47,456 nucleotides of DNA, taken from assembly GCA_964412585.1 (NCBI GenBank), contig CAYPPJ010000007.1, forward strand, positions 1 through 47,456, read 5' to 3'. This DNA is from an uncultured Candidatus Saccharibacteria bacterium. Its GTDB lineage: Bacteria; Patescibacteriota; Minisyncoccia; Phycocordibacterales; PALSA-1337. The notes under the pieces are model-generated. The model saw nothing but the letters and a program-made list of their open reading frames with translations, searched no databases and was not told where the DNA came from. This document shows, piece by piece, positions 813 through 46,971 of the stretch. Position numbers and translations under genes: made by a program. The stretch's first letter is position 1, and each line of letters starts with the position of its first letter.

Positions 813-935
813 GAGGATTCAATACAATGCAGAGTGCAATAATTTCAATACACGTTTAGACAAAATGCCAGGGAAGACCTGGCATTTTTGTTTGCTGATT
901 TGCATCATTGAGAGTACTATGTGGATACAAAATAT

Positions 936-1730
936 ATGGCAGAAGAACTCTCACAACAGCGCAAAATTAGAAATAAGTTCTCTCAACTCGTAGATGCGTA
1001 TACGAAATACCGTCGCGACTACCCTGATAGGGTATACGATTTGATATACGAATTCTGTCCGAACAGGGATGCGCAGGTTCTCGATGTTGGCTGCGGTACA
1101 GGCATAGTGACAAAACGGCTCGCTGAGCATTTCAGGCATGTTGTTGGTACCGACAAGGAGGAAGGCATGCTTGCTGTGGCTCGGCTAACCATGGGCAAAT
1201 CGGCTGGCACGGGGAAACCGGTCACATTTGTAAATACAGCAGTTGAATCTATGCCATTTGAAACGGGAACATTTGATTTGGTCACGGCAGCTTCGGCATA
1301 TCATTGGTTCGACTATGGAGCAGCTGGGAAGGAGATATACAGGGTCTTGAAGCCTGAAGGGAAACTGTGCGTATTTTGGAAGCATCAGCGTGACAAGACT
1401 TTCGCCAACCTTCCTATATTTGCATATAACAATTTGAAAAAATTCGTATCTGATGTACCACGAAGCAACAAAGGTCCAATTCGGGAGCAGCTCTTTCTGA
1501 ATGCAGGATTCACTAAGGTCCGACTCGAGGAGTTTAATTTTGATGAAGTATACTCTGTTGAAGAAGTGCTCGGATACATCCAGTCACATTCAACCTACAA
1601 TTTGTTAGACGCTGAACAGAAGAAAGCGTACATGGACCTGAATAGGGAAGCCGTCGGTCAGCATCTCACCGAGGGAATATTCATTTTTCAGTACAAAATG
1701 GTTATGTACTTTGTAGAGAAAAAATTTTAA
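936..1730 (+). CDS. Class I SAM-dependent methyltransferase (Methyltransf_11-like); ORF open from GTG 921, ATG 936 preferred
   Basis: VLDVGCGTG motif I, FDLVTAASAYHWFD, EIYRVLKPEG, N-terminal FS..Y..YR..YP signature. Confidence 0.88.
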   Translation: MAEELSQQRKIRNKFSQLVDAYTKYRRDYPDRVYDLIYEFCPNRDAQVLDVGCGTGIVTKRLAEHFRHVVGTDKEEGMLAVARLTMGKSAGTGKPVTFVNTAVESMPFETGTFDLVTAASAYHWFDYGAAGKEIYRVLKPEGKLCVFWKHQRDKTFANLPIFAYNNLKKFVSDVPRSNKGPIREQLFLNAGFTKVRLEEFNFDEVYSVEEVLGYIQSHSTYNLLDAEQKKAYMDLNREAVGQHLTEGIFIFQYKMVMYFVEKKF

Positions 1731-35160: not shown

Positions 35161-35688
35161 ATGAAAAAAATCAATACAAAGCAGCAACAAAATGTATCAA
35201 AAAATAGTGTTGTACTTTACACAAATACAGATGGTAATGTCGAACTGCGTGCCGATGTGAAGAAGGATACGTTGTGGGCGACCCAAGAACAGATTGCTCA
35301 AATATTTGGTACCACAAAACAAGTTATTAGTTGGCACACAGTAAATATTTTCAAAGAAGGTGAGTTGAATAAAATTTCAGTTGTCAAAGAATCTTTGACA
35401 ACTGCCGCTGACGGTAAAAGATACAAAACAAACTTCTACAACCTCGACTCCATCATCGCCGTCGGCTACCGCGTCAATTCCAAGAAAGCTACACAGTTTC
35501 GCATCTGGGCCACCACCATCCTCCGCACCTATCTCGTCTCTGGTCATGCACTCAATACGCACGTACTTACCACATCGCCAGATAAATTCATCGGCCTCGA
35601 CGAAGCTGTGGCACTGCTCAAATCATCGAAGCATCCGGGGAAATTGAAGGGGAATCTCATACTCAAAATCAAGAAGGAGGTGGTGTAG
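35161..35688 (+). CDS. RhuM-family protein (short form, N-terminal domain)
   Basis: LWATQEQIAQIFGTT...ISWH..NIFKEGEL, FYNLDSIIAVGYRVNSKKATQFRIWAT. Confidence 0.88.
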   Translation: MKKINTKQQQNVSKNSVVLYTNTDGNVELRADVKKDTLWATQEQIAQIFGTTKQVISWHTVNIFKEGELNKISVVKESLTTAADGKRYKTNFYNLDSIIAVGYRVNSKKATQFRIWATTILRTYLVSGHALNTHVLTTSPDKFIGLDEAVALLKSSKHPGKLKGNLILKIKKEVV

Positions 35689-35698
35689 AGGAGTAGTG

Positions 35699-35747
35699 TA
35701 AACAAAAAGCCCGCCTTGCGAACAGAGGTCTTCTGTTGCAAAGCGGG
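35699..35747 (-). terminator. Intrinsic terminator downstream of the Clp-N gene
   Basis: Long hairpin cccgc-cttgc-gaacaga / tctgtt-gcaa-agcggg followed by a T run on the minus strand. Confidence 0.65.
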
Positions 35748-35781
35748 AGCACGTGATGTCTGACGTACGCGAACCGACGCT

Positions 35782-36228
35782 TTAGCGCAACCCTTCTTTG
35801 GGGAATTTGGCCAGCGTCTCTTTGTAATTGATCTTGAGCTTTTTCAGCACCTGAGCCGCCAGGCCGTCTCCTTCGTAGAGGATGCCGAGAAACAGATGCC
35901 ATGGCTCGATATGGTCGAGGCCAAACTCGTGTTTGGCAATCCGTCCTGCGAGCCCGATAACTTTTTGGGAACGCGGGGTCAGCCTCATTTGTCCGTAGCT
36001 TTTACGAGGCACCACTTCCCCCACTTCTTTGATGATAGTCTTCCAGATCTTGACGTTGTCGAGGCCTACAAGCTTGTTGAGGACAATCACCGTATCATGG
36101 TCTTGGCAGAGCGACAGCATCAGATGTTCGGTACAAATGACGTCGCTGTGCATCTCGCTGGCAAGAAGGCCTGCGAATGAGATGACCGTTGAGGTCGCGT
36201 GTGAACGTACGACATTTGGAATGTTCAT
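35782..36228 (-). CDS. Stand-alone Clp N-terminal (double Clp-R repeat) domain protein, copy 1 (start ATG 36228)
   Basis: ICTEHLMLSL and LTPRSQKVIGLA...IEPWHLFLGILYEGDGLAAQVLKK; no AAA+ module; TTGACA-16-TAAGGT promoter upstream. Confidence 0.85.
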   Translation of the reverse strand: MNIPNVVRSHATSTVISFAGLLASEMHSDVICTEHLMLSLCQDHDTVIVLNKLVGLDNVKIWKTIIKEVGEVVPRKSYGQMRLTPRSQKVIGLAGRIAKHEFGLDHIEPWHLFLGILYEGDGLAAQVLKKLKINYKETLAKFPKEGLR

Positions 36229-36254
36229 TATTTGTCTTTCGTTGGGCTGGTGAC

Positions 36255-36282
36255 ACCTTACCTCAAGGAAGAGGAATGTCAA
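36255..36282 (-). promoter_or_regulatory. sigma70-type promoter for Clp-N copy 1
   Basis: Minus strand TTGACA (36282-36277), 16-nt spacer, TAAGGT (36260-36255). Confidence 0.55.
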
Positions 36283-36345
36283 GAATGGCGGTATAAACAA
36301 AAAGCCCGTCTCCCAAAATAGACCCAAAAATGCTACCATCACCCC

Positions 36346-36633
36346 ATGAATCCTCCCGAATCCAACCCGCCCACCCTCGAGAGCCTCTCAGCCGAGATTG
36401 CCGCTCTCAAAGCCCGTAATACCCGCGTCGAAGCCGCCAAAGGCTGGGAAACCAGCGCCACCCGCAGGATCCTCATTGCCGCGTTCACCTATATCGTCAT
36501 CGTCCTCTTCTTCCTCGCCGCCGGCCTGCCCAAGCCATTCGTCAATCCAATCGTGCCCACCGTCGGGTTCCTCTTGTCCACGCTGTCGCTCGAGTACGTG
36601 AGGAGGAGGTGGGGTTTAAATAAAAACAAGTAA
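36346..36633 (+). CDS. Small conserved hypothetical membrane protein (coiled coil + 2 TM)
   Basis: RN.RVE..K.WETS.TRR...FTY...PF.N.IVPT.GFLLSTLSL pattern; TGc-TACCAT 6 nt before ATG. Confidence 0.75.
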   Translation: MNPPESNPPTLESLSAEIAALKARNTRVEAAKGWETSATRRILIAAFTYIVIVLFFLAAGLPKPFVNPIVPTVGFLLSTLSLEYVRRRWGLNKNK

Positions 36634-36649
36634 TCGGTATTTAATTTTT

Positions 36650-36868
36650 ATGATTAAAGATAATTGGTTCAAGTTAGTGATTGTTGTTCTGGCGATTGTG
36701 GGTATTATTCTCGGTTTTAATTATGGTGAAGCAAGAGATACTTCAGAGAAACAGTTGCAAATTTTAAAAATTTGTATGGGCACAGTCAATCCAGATTCGC
36801 TAAAGGATTACGAATCGCTGAAAATCAATCTTGGGCTATGTGATAAGTTGAGCAGAGAATTTAGGTAA
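36650..36868 (+). CDS. Small hypothetical protein with N-terminal signal anchor
   Basis: IKDNWFKL + hydrophobic stretch; AT-rich leader before ATG. Confidence 0.55.
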   Translation: MIKDNWFKLVIVVLAIVGIILGFNYGEARDTSEKQLQILKICMGTVNPDSLKDYESLKINLGLCDKLSREFR

Positions 36869-36890
36869 ATTTATTATTCACATCTTTTCC

Positions 36891-36916
36891 ACCTCGAGAC
36901 CTTCTCGAGGTCTTTT
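36891..36916 (+). terminator. Probable intrinsic terminator
   Basis: acctcgaga-cct-tctcgaggt followed by ctttt. Confidence 0.5.
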
Positions 36917-37036
36917 GGTTTGCTATAATCCTGATACAAGAAATTCCCCTCCGCACAACTCAATAATTATGTCCCAAATTGCAACTATTTTTTAGGGAAA
37001 TGGCTAGATTAGCAATGCCTCGTAATTTAATATACT

Positions 37037-37906
37037 ATGTACATTACACCTCCATTATCGCCGGTTATGATTAACAAGAAGATATTATCTCGTGTTGAAA
37101 CAAAGCCTTATTTTCAGAAAGGTGACTTTGTTTTGTATCACGGAGACTCACTGAGTATCCTCGCTCAGTTACCTGAAAATTCAATAGATATGATTTTCGC
37201 AGATCCACCGTACAATCTCTCGAATGGTGGCTTTAGTGTTCATGCAGGAAAGATGGTCAGTGTCGACAAGGGTGACTGGGATAAGAGTAAAGGATTCAAA
37301 GATGACTACGATTTCCATCATCGTTGGTTAGAAGCATGCAAACGCGTCTTGAAACCGAATGGAACACTGTGGGTGAGCGGGACATATCATTCGATTTATC
37401 AGTGTGGTCATGCGTTGCAATCATTGGGATACCATATCCTCAATGATATCTCATGGTTCAAACCAAACGCATCTCCAAACTTGAGTTGCAGATTTTTTAC
37501 TGCAAGTCACGAGACTATTATTTGGGCTCGCAAAGACAAGAAGGGTAAGCACACCTTCAATTATCAGGACATGAAGACCAAAGAGTGGCCTGATGATTTT
37601 TTCAAGAATGGGGGAAAACAGATGAGAAGTGTGTGGCATATTCCTGAAACAGAAAGTGTTTGGACAGTTGGTACACCAAAGAAAGAAGAGAAGATTTACG
37701 GAAAGCACCCAACCCAGAAACCTCTGGAACTATTAAAGAGGATTGTGCTGGCGAGTACTAATAAAGGAGAAATTATTCTCGATCCATTCGCTGGGAGTTC
37801 AACAACCGGAATTGCTTCGATTATGCATGGCCGAAAGTTTTTGGGTATTGATATGGACAAAGGGTTTCTAGATTTATCAAAGAAGAGGGCGTTAGATATA
37901 ATATAG
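37037..37906 (+). CDS. Beta-class N6-adenine DNA methyltransferase, DpnA-like (start may be ATG 37067)
   Basis: IFADPPYNLSNGG, VDKGDWD, GKQMRSVW, KHPTQKPLELLKRI, ILDPFAGSSTTG. Confidence 0.92.
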   Translation: MYITPPLSPVMINKKILSRVETKPYFQKGDFVLYHGDSLSILAQLPENSIDMIFADPPYNLSNGGFSVHAGKMVSVDKGDWDKSKGFKDDYDFHHRWLEACKRVLKPNGTLWVSGTYHSIYQCGHALQSLGYHILNDISWFKPNASPNLSCRFFTASHETIIWARKDKKGKHTFNYQDMKTKEWPDDFFKNGGKQMRSVWHIPETESVWTVGTPKKEEKIYGKHPTQKPLELLKRIVLASTNKGEIILDPFAGSSTTGIASIMHGRKFLGIDMDKGFLDLSKKRALDII

Positions 37907-37911
37907 CTATC

Positions 37912-38529
37912 ATGAAAAATGAAAGTCTGAATTTGCTGAATAATAAGGAAGTAATTCGTTGGTGTTACGAAGCTATTACGGAAGTTTCCTTGATGAATAC
38001 GGAAAGCAGTAAAAATCTTGAGGAATCAAAAAAGATTGAACAAGATTGGGGAAATAAAGTAATCAAAACAATCGGTGGCAAGCAGTGGACGACGGTTCTC
38101 TGTCAGGAGCTTGTAATGGAAGCACTAATTAAACTTGGCAGGAAACATGTTAGAAAAACTAAACCTATGCAGAGTTCACTTAGGGATAAGAGTTATGATC
38201 CTGATCTTGAGTGTGATGATTATGTCTATGAGGTAAAAGGTAGGAGCTGGACTACTCCAGGAACTGCAGGTGAAAAAATACTTGGAGTTCCGTTGAAGTA
38301 TGGTGAATTACCTCGTCTATATAAAAAACCGCTCCAGATTATATTAGTCGGATATCAGGAATATGAGGCACGTGAGAAGTTTGCGTTTGGAGATTTGCTG
38401 GATTCGAAAAATCAAACAAAGGAACTTCATGAAAGCCTGGCTTTTTATAAGGAGCAGGAGATTGAATACGTTGCTTTTACGGATATCTTAAAAAAGATTG
38501 GATTTAAGTATGGTTGTTGGAAAAAATAA
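37912..38529 (+). CDS. Putative PD-(D/E)xK restriction endonuclease
   Basis: PDLECDDYVYEVK motif; 5 nt downstream of the MTase; family not recognised. Confidence 0.6.
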   Translation: MKNESLNLLNNKEVIRWCYEAITEVSLMNTESSKNLEESKKIEQDWGNKVIKTIGGKQWTTVLCQELVMEALIKLGRKHVRKTKPMQSSLRDKSYDPDLECDDYVYEVKGRSWTTPGTAGEKILGVPLKYGELPRLYKKPLQIILVGYQEYEAREKFAFGDLLDSKNQTKELHESLAFYKEQEIEYVAFTDILKKIGFKYGCWKK

Positions 38530-38636
38530 GAGGATCTTGATAAATCAACAAATTGCCTCCCGGCATTTGTATAAATATTTTGTCAGGAAGGACATCTGGG
38601 CTATTGCTTTTTTAACTTTCATGATATAATTACGTG

Positions 38637-39070
38637 GTCCAGAAGTTAAAAACGGATGGATGACGGACTGATACATAATTTTATTAGCATAAAGAGAGCG
38701 TTGCAAAACCCTATCGGATAGCTGATGAGATTATCTCGTCAGTTTGTCCAATGGGTTTTTGTTCTTTTGGTTAGATAGATCCTTTCAGCTACTGGTTAGA
38801 TGGTTGATGGGGTTTATTTAACAGTAACTGGCATGACCCTGAAAAAGCCAGCAGGTGATGGTCTGACCATTCCATCAATAAATGGCGAATAAATTCGCTC
38901 GTTGCTTTCCAACCGTGGACGGCTATATGTTATGTCAACATTGGAATGGCAACTGGATAAAGTTTCTTGCAGGAAACTGGGGAAATAGAAAACGCCCCCT
39001 AAAGAGCGTTTTCAAGAAAAAGTCCGCTTAGATTTTTTCACACAATAGACCCTTTGGGGTCTTTTGTGTT
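38637..39070 (+). ncRNA. Candidate structured non-coding RNA (unassigned)
   Basis: TGa-TATAAT at 38622-38630, no ORF >=60 aa in 38530-39192, at least 6 hairpins, terminator-like stem at 39040-39068. Confidence 0.35.
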
Positions 39071-39222
39071 CATTGGTAATTATAACCCATGAGTTCACTA
39101 TCCTATATTTTTTCTGTGTATAACGCAAGTCAGCTTCCATCCAAGGGAGTTTTTACTGGGTTGTCATTTGTTAATAAAGTTGTATAGTTAAATTGCAATT
39201 AAGTAATTTTAATATAAATAAT

Positions 39223-39456
39223 ATGAAGAAATATATATTTTTGCTTGCTCTAGTTTTCTGCGCATTTTCTCTTGTCTCCTCAGTCGAGGCAAAAACCATA
39301 AAAGTTAAGTCTTATTACAAACCATCTACCGGCACTTACATTAATTCTTATTACAAAACATCTTCAAATAAGACAAAGTTGGATAATTATTCAACTAAAG
39401 GCAATTACAATCCTTACACAGGAAAAAAGGGCTACGTGAATCCCTATAAATGGTAG
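39223..39456 (+). CDS. Small basic secreted protein with K.DNYSTKGNYNPYTGKKG motif
   Basis: Signal peptide MKKYIFLLALVF...VEA, then VKSYYK.S.GTY.NSYYKT..N.TK.DNYSTKGN.NPYTG. Confidence 0.75.
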   Translation: MKKYIFLLALVFCAFSLVSSVEAKTIKVKSYYKPSTGTYINSYYKTSSNKTKLDNYSTKGNYNPYTGKKGYVNPYKW

Positions 39457-39458
39457 AG

Positions 39459-40103
39459 ATGAAGAAATTTATTATTGAAAATTGGTTTAAATTGACCATT
39501 GTTGGAATCGTTATTTTGATTGGTTTATTTTTACTTTTTTACTTTATTATTTTTATTCCTCAAAAGGAACAGCAAATGCTCGTTAGACAGGCCGAAGAGA
39601 GGGCTAAACTTGAGGAATTACAAAAGGAAAAAGAATTGAGTGATCCTAAATCGGATAAATATATTGTTACTTATGACAAAGAAGGTAATCCATTGGATTG
39701 GACTGTTTTGACAAGGGCGTCCGTTATTCTTAATGACACTTTAACTACTTATCAAGAAGTACTACCTGTAATACAAAAAACTCAAACGACTGAGCGGGAA
39801 ATTCTTTCAAAGCTTTATAGTGTCTTGAAGAGTCCATATCTTGAGGATAAAGCTAGTTGGCAGAATTTAATAAATCACGATGAAGCTTATATAGCTTCAG
39901 GTGAAAAAGTCATCACACTACTTTCTAATCTGATTAAAAATTATCAAGGTTTACATACTGCTGTTAGTATGAGAGATCCACAGCTGTATCTTTATTACGA
40001 AGAAGAAATTTCAAAACTTGAAGCACAAAAGTCATTAATTATGAAGGATTATTCGGATAAAGAAGCTAAGAAAAAGTATTACGCTAGTTTTTTGTCGTCA
40101 TAA
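39459..40103 (+). CDS. Hypothetical membrane-anchored helical protein
   Basis: IIENWFKL + TM, then coiled-coil-like region; AT-rich. Confidence 0.65.
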   Translation: MKKFIIENWFKLTIVGIVILIGLFLLFYFIIFIPQKEQQMLVRQAEERAKLEELQKEKELSDPKSDKYIVTYDKEGNPLDWTVLTRASVILNDTLTTYQEVLPVIQKTQTTEREILSKLYSVLKSPYLEDKASWQNLINHDEAYIASGEKVITLLSNLIKNYQGLHTAVSMRDPQLYLYYEEEISKLEAQKSLIMKDYSDKEAKKKYYASFLSS

Positions 40104-40158
40104 TAACTAAATTCAGTTAGTTTTTGGGGCATAATTCAGTCATGTTATAATCCCTCCC

Positions 40159-41394
40159 ATGCCCCCAACGCCCGCCTCCCACAATTCCAACCCCACCCCC
40201 TCGAACCCTCAACCCCGCAAAATATTCGGCCTGAACCGCAACATTTTCATACTGGGCCTCACGAGTTTCTTCAACGACTTCTCCAATGAAATGATCCTCT
40301 CGGCATTCCCGGCCTTCTTTACCTCGGTACTCAAGGCGGGGGCGGCATCGCTGGGGCTGGTGGAGGGTATTGCTGATGGGGCATCCAACATTCTCAAGAT
40401 CTATTCCGGTCAGCTCTCGGACAAACTCAAGAAGCGTCGCATATTCATCTTCCTCGGCTATGGCATGTCCGTCATCATCAGACCCTTCTACATGGTCATG
40501 GGCTCGGTGGCCGGAGTCTTGGGACTCAGGGTGGTTGATCGTATCGGCAAAGGGGTCAGGGAAGCGCCACGCGATGTGATCATCTCGGTCTCATCACAAG
40601 CAGGGGAAATGGGTCGCTCATTTGGCTACCACCGCGCCATGGATACGGCGGGCGGTATCTTGGGACCTCTGGCCGCATACCTCATCTTGGCGCGCTGGCC
40701 GGGCGGGTTCAATATTATTTTCATAAGTGCGTTTGTGATCGGCCTCATTGCGGTGGCCACCATCTTCTTTGTCAAAGACGTGGTCATCGCTCGTGACGGT
40801 CAGGGCGTGCGCATCTTTTCCCTGCAAACCTTCCGCTCATTCTCGCCACGCTTCAAATGGTATCTCGTAGCCATCTTCATTTTCTCCATAGGCTCACTGC
40901 CATCGGCACTCCTCTTGTTGCAGACCACCAACATCGGCTTGATGATCGCCTCCATCCCGCTCTACTACATGGTCTACAGTATTTCATTCACTCTTTTTTC
41001 ATATGCGGCAGGCAAGCTCTCGGACAAGATCGGCACCTCGCGTGTCTTGGCATTCGGCTATGCGATCTTGGCGCTTTCATACATCGCACTGATGACCTCG
41101 ACGACGCCGCTGACGTTGGGATTTGCATTTGCAGTCATGGGACTCTTTTCGGCCTGCACTGACTCGACACAGCGCGCTTTTGTGGCAAAGACCACACCCG
41201 AATATGAACGCGGCACGGCTTACGGTATGTACAATGCGGTGGTGGGATTTGGGATTATGATTTCGGGCATTCTTGGCGGCATTATCTGGCAGTCGTGGGG
41301 ACCAACGACGGCACTCCTGATTGCGGAGGCGGTGGTTGTGGTGGGGCTTATTGTGTTTTATGCCAGCACGAAAGTGGGAAGGGGGAATATTTGA
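40159..41394 (+). CDS. MFS transporter
   Basis: About 12 TMs; GQLSDKLKKRR, RVVDRIGKGVREAPRD, GKLSDKIGTSR, ERGTAYGMYN. Confidence 0.93.
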   Translation: MPPTPASHNSNPTPSNPQPRKIFGLNRNIFILGLTSFFNDFSNEMILSAFPAFFTSVLKAGAASLGLVEGIADGASNILKIYSGQLSDKLKKRRIFIFLGYGMSVIIRPFYMVMGSVAGVLGLRVVDRIGKGVREAPRDVIISVSSQAGEMGRSFGYHRAMDTAGGILGPLAAYLILARWPGGFNIIFISAFVIGLIAVATIFFVKDVVIARDGQGVRIFSLQTFRSFSPRFKWYLVAIFIFSIGSLPSALLLLQTTNIGLMIASIPLYYMVYSISFTLFSYAAGKLSDKIGTSRVLAFGYAILALSYIALMTSTTPLTLGFAFAVMGLFSACTDSTQRAFVAKTTPEYERGTAYGMYNAVVGFGIMISGILGGIIWQSWGPTTALLIAEAVVVVGLIVFYASTKVGRGNI

Positions 41395-41406
41395 TATAAT
41401 AAACCC

Positions 41407-42648
41407 ATGAAAAAATCTATATTTTTTGTTTTGTTGTTTTCAGTATCAGCAGTAACGTTCTGCGTACATCCCTCAGTTTCTCAGGCCTCATGGTGGAATC
41501 CTTTCACATGGTTTTCCAAGTCGTCGAGTGTTCAGATTAATACTGTAGTTTCTTCTGGTGTAGAGTCACCGTCGAAGAAAATTGCCCAGATTAGTATCTC
41601 CACACCTACTTATGATGATGTCCTTGAACCAGGGGCAACTGTACCACTTGAGTTTACATCTGTTTCAGGGGCGCAAACATATAACGTTAGTATTGTGTTG
41701 ACGGGCAAGTCCGCATCACCACACGTTTTAGATTTGACCCTTACAAACACAAAAGGAACAATCACTATTCCGCAGACACAAAATTCATATCTGGTAGGTG
41801 GCTCATTGGATGGTAGTGAGCTCGTGGTACAAGCACTTGATAAAGATGGAAGAATAGTTGGGTATGGCAGAAATCAAATTCGTATTCTGCCACAAGCATC
41901 TAATCCGAACCTACTTAAAGCAAGTTCTTATATAGTAAGTGGCAATGGTGGAGCTGTTACGTTAACTTTTGGGTCACTAACAAAACCATTGGTGCGTCGC
42001 GAAGTAGATATCTCGTGTGTAAATACATATACACTCGCATCGATTGATGGGCTTGCCTGCGGTAAGATTCTGTCTCTAGGTTCTGGTGCATACACAAAAA
42101 AATTGTCTACCAAAAGGAATATTTTTACAGATCGCGATATTACTATTGTGGTCGGTGTAAAATATTTTGATGCACAAGGACAAGAAGTGAATCCTTCTGG
42201 TATCGATGACGAATCCTTTGTCACTATCAAAATAACAAAACCGACACCTGGTGCGCCCGTTGTAGAGGATGCAAAACCTGGCATATCAGCTATTTCACAG
42301 GAAATCTTGGATCAAAAGAAAACTGAACAGAATTGCCCGGCAGACGGTGCGGCATTCGTCAAGAAATTTATTGCAGACAAAGGCCAATTTCCGGGTGTTT
42401 CCAACTATGCTTTTGATAAGATTGTTGGTACTCCGGAATATCATTACAACAGATCATCACAGGCTTGTTTCGTAAAATTGACCCATACTATCTCGGCTTC
42501 CAGCGCAACAGTATTTGTCAGTGAAATCAGGGATGTGCATAGTACAAAACTGATAACATCTTCAGTGTGGTCGTCTGAAAAAGAACTTGGCAAACATCCG
42601 ACAAAAGAAGAATTTGACGCCGAAGCTCAGCAGCTTATGAGAGATTGA
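41407..42648 (+). CDS. Secreted hypothetical protein (beta-sandwich-like)
   Basis: Signal peptide ending SQA followed by SWWNPFTWF; beta-rich body. Confidence 0.7.
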   Translation: MKKSIFFVLLFSVSAVTFCVHPSVSQASWWNPFTWFSKSSSVQINTVVSSGVESPSKKIAQISISTPTYDDVLEPGATVPLEFTSVSGAQTYNVSIVLTGKSASPHVLDLTLTNTKGTITIPQTQNSYLVGGSLDGSELVVQALDKDGRIVGYGRNQIRILPQASNPNLLKASSYIVSGNGGAVTLTFGSLTKPLVRREVDISCVNTYTLASIDGLACGKILSLGSGAYTKKLSTKRNIFTDRDITIVVGVKYFDAQGQEVNPSGIDDESFVTIKITKPTPGAPVVEDAKPGISAISQEILDQKKTEQNCPADGAAFVKKFIADKGQFPGVSNYAFDKIVGTPEYHYNRSSQACFVKLTHTISASSATVFVSEIRDVHSTKLITSSVWSSEKELGKHPTKEEFDAEAQQLMRD

Positions 42649-42672
42649 TGTAAGTTTTGGTACAATACCTTC

Positions 42673-43395
42673 ATGAAAAACTATTCAATCTACAACGCCT
42701 CGTCCGAGAATATGTCAGCAGTTGCGGATAATTCCGTTGATAGTATCGTTTTTGCTCCGCCATATAATATCAACACTCCTTATAGCGACCGAGAGAAGTA
42801 TGACCACAAATCATTCGAAGAATATCGAGACATGCTTAGTCGCATTATCCGGGAGTGTTTTCGTGTTCTCAAACCGACGGGACTTTTCATCAATGAATCT
42901 GCGGACACAATTTATTCTGATGGTAAGCTGATAGCGCTCTCGGGATTGATTCAGAAATTGTGTCTTGATGCGGGATTCAAGATCAAAGAACGACATATTA
43001 ATTTTCTACAATCTGAAGCAGGTGTTGAGCTTGTCGATAGGGAACATAACTGGTCAAAAGTAGACTATTATTCAGAAGACAACGCCCACTCCAACTGTCA
43101 TCAGTGGATTGTTATGGCAAAAGATCCGTCTACAACCTTCGAAGGTGACAAGGGTAAGATTTTTTATATCAATTATCCGTCAGACGAAGAAGGTCATCCG
43201 TGTCCATTCTCACCGGAACATGTACGGATCTTCCTTGATTTGTTGAAGTTTGCTAAAGGGATGACTGTTCTCGAGTCTTTTATGGGAACGGCGCGACTCG
43301 GTGTGGAGGTTGTCAGCAGGGGTGGGAACTACGTGGGTTATGAGTTGGAGAAAAAACATTTCGAAACGGCTCAAAATAAATTTGCCGCCATCTAG
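42673..43395 (+). CDS. Beta-class N4-C/N6-A DNA methyltransferase homolog with degenerate motifs (APPY; ESFMGTA)
   Basis: VDSIVFAPPY, ECFRVLKPTG, GHPCPF, VLESFMGTARLG, GYELEK. Confidence 0.75.
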   Translation: MKNYSIYNASSENMSAVADNSVDSIVFAPPYNINTPYSDREKYDHKSFEEYRDMLSRIIRECFRVLKPTGLFINESADTIYSDGKLIALSGLIQKLCLDAGFKIKERHINFLQSEAGVELVDREHNWSKVDYYSEDNAHSNCHQWIVMAKDPSTTFEGDKGKIFYINYPSDEEGHPCPFSPEHVRIFLDLLKFAKGMTVLESFMGTARLGVEVVSRGGNYVGYELEKKHFETAQNKFAAI

Positions 43396-43414
43396 GTGTA
43401 GAAATGTGTGTGTA

Positions 43415-43454
43415 TAAAAAATTCGAGGCGGCACGGAAGGGTTCCGTACCGCCT
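43415..43454 (-). terminator. Probable intrinsic terminator between convergent genes
   Basis: aggcgg-cacggaa / ttccgta-ccgcct hairpin with an A run at its left (T run on the minus strand). Confidence 0.55.
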
Positions 43455-43464
43455 GAAGTGATCG

Positions 43465-43821
43465 TTAGCCAAACAAATGGTGTGTAATGATGATTATCAC
43501 CAAGCACAGTACTGCTGTGGTTAAGACAGATAAAGCTCGGCCTACAAACATGCCGACCCTTATGCTCCAGAAGGCTGTTTCGCTGTAGTCGCCTTGTTCC
43601 ACCATCAACCCAATGCAGATGGAGAGGATTTGGTAGTAGTTCACAGGCCCGGACCCGAGGGATTGGAAGAGCCAATAGAATAATGTGCTCATTACAAGAC
43701 ATCGGGTGACTGCACGAAGCTGTTTGAGGGCAATTTTCCTGACTGCGCATTTGATCCCGATAGAAGTTCCTCCTGCACGGTAGTACCCTGTGCGGAAACC
43801 GCTGGCGAATGTTGCATTCAT
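43465..43821 (-). CDS. Hypothetical membrane protein (118 aa)
   Basis: ATG start, hydrophobic segments, own canonical promoter and terminator; no family recognised. Confidence 0.5.
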   Translation of the reverse strand: MNATFASGFRTGYYRAGGTSIGIKCAVRKIALKQLRAVTRCLVMSTLFYWLFQSLGSGPVNYYQILSICIGLMVEQGDYSETAFWSIRVGMFVGRALSVLTTAVLCLVIIIITHHLFG

Positions 43822-43872
43822 AGTTTTTGGGAGCTGCTGGTAACAGTGGTGTCACCGAAGTAATTTAAGCCA

Positions 43873-43901
43873 ATTATGGCATTATTGTCATGTTTTGTCA
43901 A
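43873..43901 (-). promoter_or_regulatory. Near-consensus sigma70 promoter
   Basis: Minus strand TTGACA (43901-43896), 17 nt, TGc-CATAAT (43878-43873). Confidence 0.7.
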
Positions 43902-43907
43902 ACGAAT

Positions 43908-43946
43908 AAAAAACCGCCCCGTGGACGATTGCTCGTCTGCGAGGCG
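43908..43946 (-). terminator. Intrinsic terminator downstream of Clp-N copy 2
   Basis: cgcc-ccgtggacga / tcgtctgcg-aggcg hairpin plus T run on the minus strand. Confidence 0.6.
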
Positions 43947-43965
43947 AAATGGTTGTTGTGCGGGA

Positions 43966-44445
43966 CTAGCTGGCGTTCGCGACGGTGGCCGCCTCGACCC
44001 GTTCATCACCGCCGCCTCCAGTGAGGCGGGAGAGGAGTGGGTCAAAAAAGACGCCGTGCATGTTCAGGACCTCGGCGGTGACGCTATTGCCCTCCTTGAG
44101 GATCCCCAAGAGCAGATGCTGGGGCTCCATGGATGTACTGCCCAGCTCGCGAGCAATATCAGCGGAAATGTCGAGGACGTGCGTTAGTCGAGGTGACAGC
44201 CTCAGCGCGTTTCCTGGAAGTGGCTCATCATTCGGTCGCACACATTGTTCGGTGTCAGTGAAGATGCGTTCCTGATCGAAAAAGATCTTGCTACCAATGA
44301 AAGCGATGAACTCGGGGCTGACGCAGAGCGCCATGAGCGCGTGTTCCGTGCTGGTGAATTGTCGGCCGTGCTTCTCGGCCATCGAAGTGGCCGTGGTGAG
44401 GATTTCTGTTGTTGAAGGTGCGAGGATATGCTTGTTGATGATCAT
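43966..44445 (-). CDS. Stand-alone Clp N-terminal domain protein, copy 2 (ATG 44445 preferred; open to 44481)
   Basis: TSTEHALMAL and LSPRLTHVLDISADIARELG...EPQHLLLGILKEGNSVTAEVLNMHGV; TTGACT-17-TATTAT promoter upstream. Confidence 0.85.
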   Translation of the reverse strand: MIINKHILAPSTTEILTTATSMAEKHGRQFTSTEHALMALCVSPEFIAFIGSKIFFDQERIFTDTEQCVRPNDEPLPGNALRLSPRLTHVLDISADIARELGSTSMEPQHLLLGILKEGNSVTAEVLNMHGVFFDPLLSRLTGGGGDERVEAATVANAS

Positions 44446-44580
44446 AATCAGACGCTTTGGGGAGTTGATGTTGACTATCACTACAGTAACTGTTCGGAGA
44501 AGATAATACGTCTAGATTGACGCGAAGTCAATGGGAGTTTTTGGGTGTATACTATACATATTATTCCTTCTCATATTTTT

Positions 44581-46352: not shown

Positions 46353-46428
46353 TCTTGTTCACAGAATACTCACAGGTTTGTTCAGGTTTTTTGTAACAAA
46401 AAATGAGGACCTGTGTTATTTTTACCTC

Positions 46429-46971
46429 ATGGTTACAGAAAATAGTGTCAAAAAAATATCCACAAATACTGTACCTCTTCAAATAATTGAACGGCGCATA
46501 CTTGTTATACGTGGAATGAGAGTAATGATTGATGCTGATTTGGCTGAATTGTATGGGGTTTCTACAATGCAACTTAATCAGGCTGTTAGAAGAAACTTTA
46601 GGCGTTTCCCAAGTGACTTCATGTTTCAACTCTCCGCTTCAGAAAAAGCAGAGGTTATCACAAATTGTGATAACCTCACTAAACTTAAATTTTCTCACCA
46701 CTTGCCACACGTCTTTACCGAACACGGCGTGGCCATGCTTTCATCTGTCCTTCGTAGTGAGCGTGCTGTCCAGGTAAACATCTTCATTATCCGTGCTTTT
46801 ATTAAAATTCGCGAAATTCTGGCATCAAACAAAGAGTTGGCATACAAAGTAGAAGAAATGGAGAGGGAACAGCGAGTTCAGAATCGTCACATCAACGCTA
46901 TTTATTCGATTTTAGATAAATTGATCGCGGAACCAGTAAAGTCAAAAAGCTCCTTCGGGTTTGTTAAATAA
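46429..46971 (+). CDS. ORF6N domain-containing protein (phage antirepressor-like DNA-binding)
   Basis: IRGMRVMIDADLAELYGV...LNQAVRRN..RFP.DFMFQL, FTEHGVAMLSSVLRS.RA.QVNI.IIRAF. Confidence 0.9.
   Translation: MVTENSVKKISTNTVPLQIIERRILVIRGMRVMIDADLAELYGVSTMQLNQAVRRNFRRFPSDFMFQLSASEKAEVITNCDNLTKLKFSHHLPHVFTEHGVAMLSSVLRSERAVQVNIFIIRAFIKIREILASNKELAYKVEEMEREQRVQNRHINAIYSILDKLIAEPVKSKSSFGFVK

Follow-up and report, generated by a model that had tools for sequence, protein, structure and literature searches.

Free ClpC-Type N-Domains Encoded by Two Intact Genes in a Hypervariable Segment of a Candidatus Taylorbacteria Genome

The 856-kb genome of an ultra-small wastewater bacterium called Candidatus Taylorbacteria (94% complete; NCBI GenBank assembly GCA_964412585.1, designated G000) carries two intact paralogous genes, clpN-1 and clpN-2, that encode free ClpC-type N-domains. 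Both were found in the window, by which we mean the whole 47,456-nucleotide stretch of DNA that was analyzed (contig CAYPPJ010000007.1, contig C7 of G000). The genes form a small accessory family specific to a few Candidatus Taylorbacteria genomes, located in a hypervariable segment that is rich in defence genes, and we tentatively propose that their products are ligand-binding heads acting on clients of the resident Clp machine. In the following sections, G-numbers designate genomes and L-numbers designate the loci compared with G000 (L009, L125, L007, L030, L132 in G009:C54, and L133 in G076). Presence was counted in 93 species genomes of the genus and in 24 genomes from other families of the same order.

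Results

Two Proteins Made of the Clp_N Double Repeat

The two genes, with coordinates that include the stop codon, are:

35782..36228, minus strand: clpN-1, encoding a 148-amino-acid (aa) stand-alone Clp_N double-repeat protein (open reading frame list, Pfam, AlphaFold2, syntenic homologs)
43966..44445, minus strand: clpN-2, encoding a 159-aa protein made of a stand-alone Clp_N double repeat and ~18 aa of disordered tail (open reading frame list, Pfam, AlphaFold2, Foldseek)

In the open reading frame (ORF) list, the two genes lie 8.2 kb apart on the same strand. The ATG at MNIPNVV gives the 148-aa ClpN-1, within a longest frame (35782-36342) that starts with GTG at 36342, and the ATG at MIINKH, a start common to the orthologs, gives the 159-aa ClpN-2, within a longest frame of 43966-44481. 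Proteins of exactly 148 and 159 aa are also present in the public protein collection.

Pfam scored ClpN-1 as Clp_N at 44.2 bits (E = 2e-11) and ClpN-2 at 40.7 bits (E = 3e-10), both above the gathering cut-off of this family (PF02861; 20.7 bits), and no other Pfam family was matched by either protein. A Clp_N scan of the whole G000 genome also recovered both genes, and in NCBIfam, residues ~10-140 aligned to the N-domains of the ClpK, ClpG, ClpB, and ClpA models. AlphaFold2 modeled ClpN-1 with 8 helices (mean predicted local distance difference test, pLDDT, 93.4; predicted template modeling score, pTM, 0.89) and ClpN-2 with 8 core helices (pLDDT 88; pTM 0.84). The architecture of the Clp_N family, two tandem repeats of ~75 residues that form a 4+4-helix pseudo-dimer, is present in both models, with the fold beginning at residue 10 in each. 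When the ClpN-2 model was searched with Foldseek, the N-domains of ClpC and ClpC1 came first, at template modeling (TM) scores of 0.7-0.8, with ClpB N-domains close behind. In the PDB sequence search, all significant matches were ClpC-type N-domains or a single entry named 'Clp amino terminal domain protein'. These results bear out an earlier note, made from the DNA letters alone, which had described two minus-strand proteins of these lengths made only of the Clp_N double repeat.

The clpN Genes Are Constrained and Change Rapidly

To describe selection, nonsynonymous divergence (dN) and the ratio omega were calculated by the Nei-Gojobori method; with synonymous sites close to saturation, omega is approximate:

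ClpN-2, G000 vs. G067: dN 0.21, omega 0.20
ClpN-2, G000 vs. G022: dN 0.69, omega 0.61
ClpN-2, G067 vs. G022: dN 0.59, omega 0.26
Cupin, all three comparisons: dN 0.05-0.06, omega 0.03-0.05
MFS, all three comparisons: dN 0.04-0.05, omega 0.07-0.08
DinB, all three comparisons: dN 0.10-0.19, omega 0.06-0.11
Mtase1, G000 vs. G022: dN 0.02, omega 0.02

The ClpN proteins (dN 0.21-0.69) changed 2-15 times faster than the products of the flanking genes (dN 0.02-0.21). Among the ClpN-1 types, dN was ~0.4, compared with 0.21-0.33 for RhuM and 0.09-0.16 for SecD/SecF. The proportion of nonsynonymous differences (pN) remained below that of synonymous differences (pS) in every clpN pair, and we conclude from this that clpN-1 and clpN-2 are constrained genes and not pseudogenes. 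The clpN frames are intact in five related loci. When the window was searched by tblastn with full-length Clp proteins, the matches were limited to residues 3-158, and no AAA+ remnant was detected downstream of either gene, even at E = 10, with three ClpC-type proteins and the genome's own ClpB-like protein.

Predicted Transcription Units Recur in Orthologous Loci

The putative signals surrounding the two genes are:

44446..44531, minus strand: clpN-2 promoter and conserved 5' leader of ~57 nt; TTGACT-17-TATTAT at 44531-44503, 10/12 matches in the scan
43912..43930, minus strand: clpN-2 terminator-like hairpin followed by TTTTTTATT (consensus scan)
36229..36290, minus strand: clpN-1 promoter region; -35 TTGACA (~36281-36276), ~16 nt, -10 TAAGGT (TAnnnT), short leader
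35696..35723, minus strand: clpN-1 terminator-like hairpin and T-run (35723-35709); the tail is one copy of a 21-nt direct repeat
36291..36311, no strand assigned: second copy of the 21-nt direct repeat (repeat family D1); the pair brackets a 595-bp clpN-1 cassette

Over the window, the promoter scan returned 24 sites compared with 18.5 +/- 4.5 in shuffled sequence, barely above chance, and the terminator scan gave a clearer signal (15 sites vs. 8.0 +/- 2.8). The main support for these predicted promoters and terminators is conservation across species, the scans alone being weak evidence. The -35, the -10, and ~35 nt of the clpN-2 leader are nearly invariant among G000, G067, and G022, with both hexamers invariant in the orthologs, and this region is far better kept than the coding sequences, whose proteins are 38-67% identical in the same three genomes. 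In an alignment of the region upstream of clpN-1 from three orthologs, the TCTTGACATT block shows no variation, nor do the T, A, and T of the -10; this promoter was missed by the consensus scan because its -10 is weak. Transcription is predicted to start near 44495 for clpN-2 and near 36255 for clpN-1. A hairpin and T-run follow all six ortholog 3' ends (including those of G067, G022, L009, and L125), with stems that differ, and the terminators lie 36-59 nt after the clpN stop codons. The claim that each gene is a self-contained promoter-gene-terminator unit was upheld by the recurrence of these signals in orthologous loci. Rapid protein change combined with a near-invariant promoter and leader favours a gene that is functional and regulated, with a protein surface that can change freely or is driven to do so.

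The clpN-2 leader (44446-44531), as well as the orthologous regions in L007 and L030, also holds an inverted pair, TTGACT (the -35) and AGTCAA(C), which may be a candidate operator for a regulator.

The two copies of the direct repeat (35696-35716 and 36291-36311; 21 nt, 90% identical) derive from the terminator tail, and in L125, the same motif serves as terminator of an upstream His_Phos gene. Three alternative junctions (35721, 36354, and 36515) were seen in contigs from environmental RNA runs, and one of them matches the 3' end of His_Phos in L125. The repeat-bracketed cassette, together with these junctions, suggests strain-level variation in the presence or absence of clpN-1. Contigs from four metatranscriptome runs cover the whole 10 kb at flat depth, with DNA carry-over being possible.

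The Paralogs Are Old and Do Not Derive From the Resident Hsp100

The identity between ClpN-1 and ClpN-2 is 26%, and that to the N-domain of the genome's own Hsp100 is ~17%. In a maximum-likelihood tree, both proteins and their orthologs formed one clade (support 98/94), separate from the tight clade of the ClpB-like N-domains of the Candidate Phyla Radiation (CPR; support 100/99). These low identities and separate clades indicate that clpN-1 and clpN-2 are old paralogs that did not arise from the resident Hsp100, and a recent duplication of its N-domain is ruled out on the same grounds. Between the two ClpN proteins and the resident ClpB-like protein, phmmer gave E = 0.09 and 0.46, and tblastn with the ClpB-like protein as the query did not find either gene.

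The closest outside relatives among species-representative genomes are N-domains of full-length ClpC-like ATPases from Clostridia and Thermotogota (25-30% identity). A word-based search for close homologs yielded 3-4 relatives per ClpN protein, and a contig scan with ClpN-2 alone as the query gave no matches. Profile searches with the ClpN family returned 1019 proteins shorter than 1.75 times the query length, and 25,628 representatives in all. The matches include HTH_17 + Clp_N (ClpC2-like) forms and many proteins with 2-7 tandem Clp_N modules. The best-scoring proteins are mostly multi-module ones, in which as many as 14 stretches were matched (over 1762 aa), and in another family of the order, two adjacent genes of ~300 aa encode two Clp_N modules each (L034, G039:C1, 6706-8625).

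An origin of clpN in phage was considered and rejected, since viral sequences gave only three weak matches, at 23-26% identity. In PHROGs, ClpN-1 was weakly matched by phrog_35667 (function not known) at 4e-8.

clpN Genes Are Rare and Occupy the Edges of a Variable Slot

Stand-alone Clp_N genes were detected in 5 of the 93 genomes of the genus (G000, with two, and G067, G022, G109, and G028), so that the two copies in G000, as the earlier note supposed, are unusual for the lineage. Among the 24 genomes from other families, such genes were clear in two only (G039 and G048). ClpN-2 has orthologs in G067 (67-68% identity) and G022 (38%) at the same MFS|Cupin junction; the copies in G109 and G028 are distant. 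Homologs of ClpN-1, at ~50% identity, are found in the syntenic loci L009 and L125. The order of genes in the loci compared is:

G000: SecD-SecF-PsiSyn-RhuM-[clpN-1]-8 kb cargo-[clpN-2]-Cupin-DinB-ORF6N
L009: Cupin-[clpN-1 type]-RhuM-PsiSyn...SecF-SecD
L125: C5 methyltransferase (MTase)-restriction endonuclease fragment-His_Phos-[clpN-1 type]-orf-RhuM
G067: DinB-Cupin-[clpN-2]-MFS
G022: PsiSyn-RhuM-TM95-MTase...MFS-[clpN-2 type]-Cupin-RhuM2-DinB; no clpN-1
G009 (L132, G009:C54): MFS-[unrelated 117-aa ORF, 848-1201, minus strand]-Cupin
G076 (L133): MFS directly abutting Cupin

clpN-1 and clpN-2 lie at either end of a slot that is prone to recombination and is bordered by conserved housekeeping genes. 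Most simply, a single gene or a tandem pair would have been present ancestrally between RhuM and Cupin, to be split later by cargo and differentially lost. We rejected the idea that the single gene of L009 is a ClpN-2/ClpN-1 chimera made by deletion, since it is ClpN-1-like over its whole length. An obligatory Cupin-ClpN pair was also rejected: the cupin is found in 47 of the 93 genomes of the genus compared with 5 for ClpN, the slot of G076 is empty, and that of G009 holds the unrelated ORF. The MFS|Cupin junction is itself a small hypervariable slot, and the genes on either side of it are 75-95% conserved.

The segment between the paralogs is:

36346..43901, no strand assigned: variable cargo (Pfam, PADLOC), with content that differs among G000, G022, G067, G009, G076, and L009

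In G000, this cargo encodes two small membrane proteins, a type II MTase and restriction endonuclease (REase), an MFS transporter, and a secreted protein of 413 aa. It also contains an orphan-like MTase (42673-43395), a low-GC stretch, and a unit with a 118-aa ORF. PADLOC assigned RhuM (35161-35688) and ORF6N (46378-46971) to candidate system PDC-S05/S23, identified 37037-38529 (plus strand) as type II MTase and REase, and called 42673-43395 a second MTase. Neither ClpN protein matched any family of PADLOC-DB 2.0 at E <= 0.01. The defence-island character of the neighbourhood is real, with R-M (restriction-modification), RhuM, and ORF6N candidates nearby, but the ClpN proteins themselves have no PADLOC match, and their adjacency to RhuM is inherited synteny within one genus.

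Several features of the cargo deserve mention. In the 37037-38529 unit, an N6/N4 DNA methylase (96.5% identical in G022) precedes a 205-aa ORF, which lacks a Pfam match and fits the PADLOC type II REase model at 2.6e-27; the unit is likely to be a compact type II R-M system. An 87-aa ORF at 39193-39456 (plus strand), with an N-terminal hydrophobic stretch, lies where GC content falls to 0.35 (38-40 kb) and matched phrog_29674 (function not known) at 6.5e-15; this match hints that part of the cargo is phage-derived. Directly after the putative clpN-2 terminator, the unit at 43426-43901 (minus strand) begins with a strong promoter-like site, TTGACA-17-CATAAT and an upstream TG (11/12 matches), continues with the 118-aa ORF (43465-43821), which looks hydrophobic, and ends with a terminator that has a 13-bp stem (43454-43426). 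The ORF had no Pfam, PHROG, or Rfam match, and the unit was rejected as a known non-coding RNA, with no Rfam, tRNA, or tmRNA match; it is absent from G067, where clpN-2 abuts MFS.

The Resident Hsp100 Combines Features of ClpB and ClpC

G000 encodes one ClpP. Its only Hsp100 is a 902-aa protein (contig C6:17700-20408, minus strand) that matched the ClpB equivalog at 1215 bits from end to end, the long middle domain included. AAA_2 had no match in G000 beyond this ClpB-like protein and likewise gave no second strong match in the 18 congeners with a completeness of 90% or more, indicating that ClpX, ClpA, and HslU are absent from the genus. ClpS was not found in G000. Lon was not found either, the sole Lon_C match being a 509-aa frame with a GPPGTGKS Walker A motif that we read as ComM/YifB-like. 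FtsH is present (Peptidase_M41 on contig C2).

Between the sensor region and FRPEFLNR, the ClpB-like protein carries MEKLGFSHTSGNRDKEN, with the ClpC/ClpA-type ClpP-docking loop MEKLGFSHTSG. A 90-residue piece around this loop scored 74-84 bits against ClpC and ClpC1 chains, with LGF aligned to the AGF, VGF, or LGF ClpP-docking tripeptide; against ClpB chains, the same piece scored 50-59 bits and needed a gap of ~10 residues. Eight orthologs were sampled, within the genus and in other families of the order (L035-L042), and each of them has the (L/I/M)GF insert. On the basis of these sequences, the resident Clp machine is probably a ClpB/ClpC hybrid coupled to ClpP, and the ClpB-like protein is probably the sole partner of ClpP. 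It resembles the engineered 'BAP' ClpB and may be a natural equivalent of it. A ClpB middle domain combined with a ClpC-type ClpP loop in the only Hsp100 of the order, without ClpX, is more surprising than the clpN pair and may matter more for CPR physiology.

The ClpN Family Keeps Part of the ClpC Ligand-Binding Residues

The ClpN family was compared, column by column, with 101 other short Clp_N proteins. All members have T33-E34-H35 of repeat 1 (T31/E32/H33 in ClpC) and (S/T)84-P85-R86 at the opening of repeat 2 (T81-P82-R83 in ClpC), and the family also keeps the H-LLLGIL-EG helix. The G-T-E-H of repeat 2, in which Glu is found in 98% of the others, is replaced by E-P-(Q/E/W/R)-H, and the N-terminal F-T-(E/D)-R-A-R motif is lost.

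In ClpC, E32 and E106 define two phosphoarginine pockets, and T7 and K85 are contact points that control the resting state, with K85 touched by all ClpC1-directed cyclic peptides (PMC12583610). ClpC2 keeps one pocket, with the participation of a Thr near the start of the domain and a Thr of the second TEH (PMC13345244). From the pairings in these two studies (PMC13345244, PMC12583610), we infer that the ClpN proteins may keep the other pocket (T81 with T31/E32) and have probably lost the ClpC2-type one.

Discussion

We propose that the ClpN proteins are free ligand-binding heads that divert or deliver clients of the ClpB-like/ClpP machine, a tentative reading that we regard as quite possible and a little short of probable. 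Clp_N domains have a hydrophobic groove that takes up unfolded segments and polar pockets for small acidic or phospho ligands. One of these pockets may be retained in ClpN, formed by the TEH of repeat 1 together with the (S/T)-P-R of repeat 2. With this pocket, the ClpN proteins would bind clients or effectors in trans, a role that we infer from their sequences. The clients would then be withheld from, or handed to, the sole cytosolic Clp machine (the 902-aa ClpB-like Hsp100 with ClpP). Fast amino-acid change beside a conserved promoter would fit a ligand that itself evolves quickly, such as a phage or mobile-element protein or a toxin, and the rare, slot-resident, high-dN pattern hints at a role in conflict rather than in housekeeping.

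Several points weigh against this proposal. The position equivalent to ClpC T7 is Ala in ClpN-2 and Ser in ClpN-1, and the K85-equivalent, which is Lys in 93% of the other short Clp_N proteins, is Thr in ClpN-2 and Gln in ClpN-1. Judged by these alignments, the T7-equivalent (in ClpN-2), the K85-equivalent, and the GTEH of repeat 2, all important in ClpC, are lost, and the retained TEH and TPR, being also general structural features of the repeat, are no proof of a ligand pocket. A homolog search of the genome did not find an arginine kinase of the McsB type. The ClpN proteins are very unlike the N-domain of the resident unfoldase, making true decoy mimicry doubtful. The high dN of clpN could be explained by relaxed constraint and not by an arms race. 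The link to RhuM and R-M genes comes from loci of shared ancestry, hence it is not an independent sign of a functional link, and the stand-alone Clp_N genes of G028, G039, G048, and G109 do not have these defence neighbours. Finally, metatranscriptome coverage at flat depth is no proof that clpN is transcribed, and the transcription units remain predicted ones.

A different explanation, which we consider somewhat unlikely, is that the ClpN proteins are components of a conflict system that works independently of Clp, in which the free Clp_N fold would be a sensor or decoy for a phage or mobile-element protein and part of a defence island. This is consistent with a location in a hypervariable slot that has PADLOC candidates and an R-M system next to it, with a ClpN gene lying within one gene of a RhuM-like gene in G000, L009, L125, and G022, with protein evolution 2-15 times faster than that of flanking genes under a conserved promoter, and with the phrog_35667 match to ClpN-1 at 4e-8. 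However, no PADLOC model or effector domain was matched and no close relative was seen in viral contigs, and the association with RhuM comes only from loci of common descent, the Clp_N genes of other relatives being without these neighbours. It is less probable still that the ClpN proteins resemble ClpT as accessory subunits, which would attach to the ClpP ring or the ClpB-like hexamer and, like plant ClpT1/ClpT2, control assembly or gating instead of binding substrates. The architecture is the same as that of ClpT, and the genome has ClpP and only one unusual partner, but a core assembly factor would be expected wherever ClpP is present, and clpN is absent from ~95% of the congeners, while the ClpB-like gene is in essentially all of them. 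Rapid divergence would also be atypical for a subunit of a conserved machine.

That the ClpN proteins are ligand-responsive transcriptional repressors and antibiotic sponges of the ClpC2 type appears very improbable. Their fold is that of a ClpC-type N-domain, one phosphoarginine-type pocket may be retained, as it is in ClpC2 (PMC13345244), and the highly conserved clpN-2 promoter and leader contain the inverted TTGACT...AGTCAA as a possible operator; against this, the proteins have no N-terminal DNA-binding domain, with a fold that begins at residue 10 of only 148 or 159 aa, and their identity to the resident N-domain is low. We give hardly any credence to the idea that full-length clp genes once stood here and have decayed to 5' fragments, which the earlier note had named as what would overturn its interpretation. 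The matches are indeed confined to the N-terminal 150 residues of ClpC-type proteins, but there is no AAA+ similarity downstream at E = 10, terminators are found 36-59 nt past the stops, five loci show intact frames and a conserved start, pN remains lower than pS, and the promoters are conserved.

The proposal of ligand-binding heads can be carried further. If Taylorbacteria and the wider order carry out cytosolic proteolysis with a ClpB that has a ClpP-docking loop as the sole partner of ClpP, the ClpN proteins might serve as interchangeable, strain-specific specificity modules that deliver or shield phage or mobile-element targets. We consider this extended version improbable; if it were true, the Clp protease would belong to the accessory defence repertoire of the cell.

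Comparison With Known Systems

The N-domains of ClpC and ClpC1 from B. subtilis, S. aureus, and M. tuberculosis (PDB 2K77, 2Y1Q, 3WDC, 5HBN) have the same 4+4-helix Clp_N double repeat as the ClpN proteins (TM 0.7-0.8), which keep the TEH of repeat 1, the (S/T)-P-R with which repeat 2 opens, and the LLLGIL-EG helix. In contrast to ClpC and ClpC1, ClpN is without an AAA+ ring, has an altered GTEH in repeat 2, and has neither the F-T-x-R-A motif nor the K85-equivalent; identity is 21-26%.

The mycobacterial and actinobacterial ClpC2 and ClpC3 (the latter a 'small Clp protein') are likewise small, with a ClpC-type N-domain and no ATPase. ClpC2 competes with ClpC1 and binds phosphoarginine as well as the cyclic peptides that are directed at ClpC1 (PMC10030653, PMC13345244, PMC10864484). 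As in ClpC2, one of the two phosphoarginine-type pockets may be retained in the ClpN sequence. ClpC2 is an autorepressor of ~250 aa with an N-terminal domain for DNA binding and oligomerisation, whereas this domain is absent from the 148- and 159-aa ClpN proteins, neither of which matched HTH_17, unlike the HTH_17 + Clp_N proteins of the ClpC2 type. The C-domain of ClpC2 is ~40% identical to the N-domain of ClpC1 (PMC13345244), compared with ~17% between ClpN and the resident Hsp100 N-domain, and the lineage (Patescibacteria) differs. The analogy captures the general idea of a free N-domain that competes for ligands, but membership in the class fails on architecture and on similarity to the resident protein. 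Of the earlier interpretation of the pair as decoys or adaptors, modulation of Clp proteolysis is still the most economical part; the likeness to ClpC2/ClpC3-style decoys is weak, given the missing DNA-binding domain, 17% identity, lost motifs, and no McsB or ClpS.

The ClpT proteins are stand-alone Clp_N proteins of about 150-180 aa. Plant chloroplast ClpT1 and ClpT2, which can be likened to ClpN by architecture alone, are also Clp_N-only and similar in size, and act on a Clp protease. Within the ClpPR ring, they are accessory subunits that belong to the conserved core, whereas ClpN proteins are products of rare, fast-evolving accessory genes. The ClpT family is discussed in PMC8889267.

ClpN-1 and ClpN-2 fall within the large and mostly uncharacterised class that NCBI names 'Clp protease N-terminal domain-containing protein', in which the Taylorbacteria proteins form a clade of their own, with outside relatives at no more than 30% identity. 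Stand-alone Clp N-domains have thousands of representatives in databases, and a role is known for few (ClpC2 and ClpC3 as antibiotic sponges or regulators, ClpT in plastids). The clpN pair is a lineage-specific addition to this large, poorly understood class, and a genome of 0.86 Mb with one ClpP, one Hsp100, and two divergent Clp_N-only genes under conserved promoters offers a compact case of the free Clp_N head.

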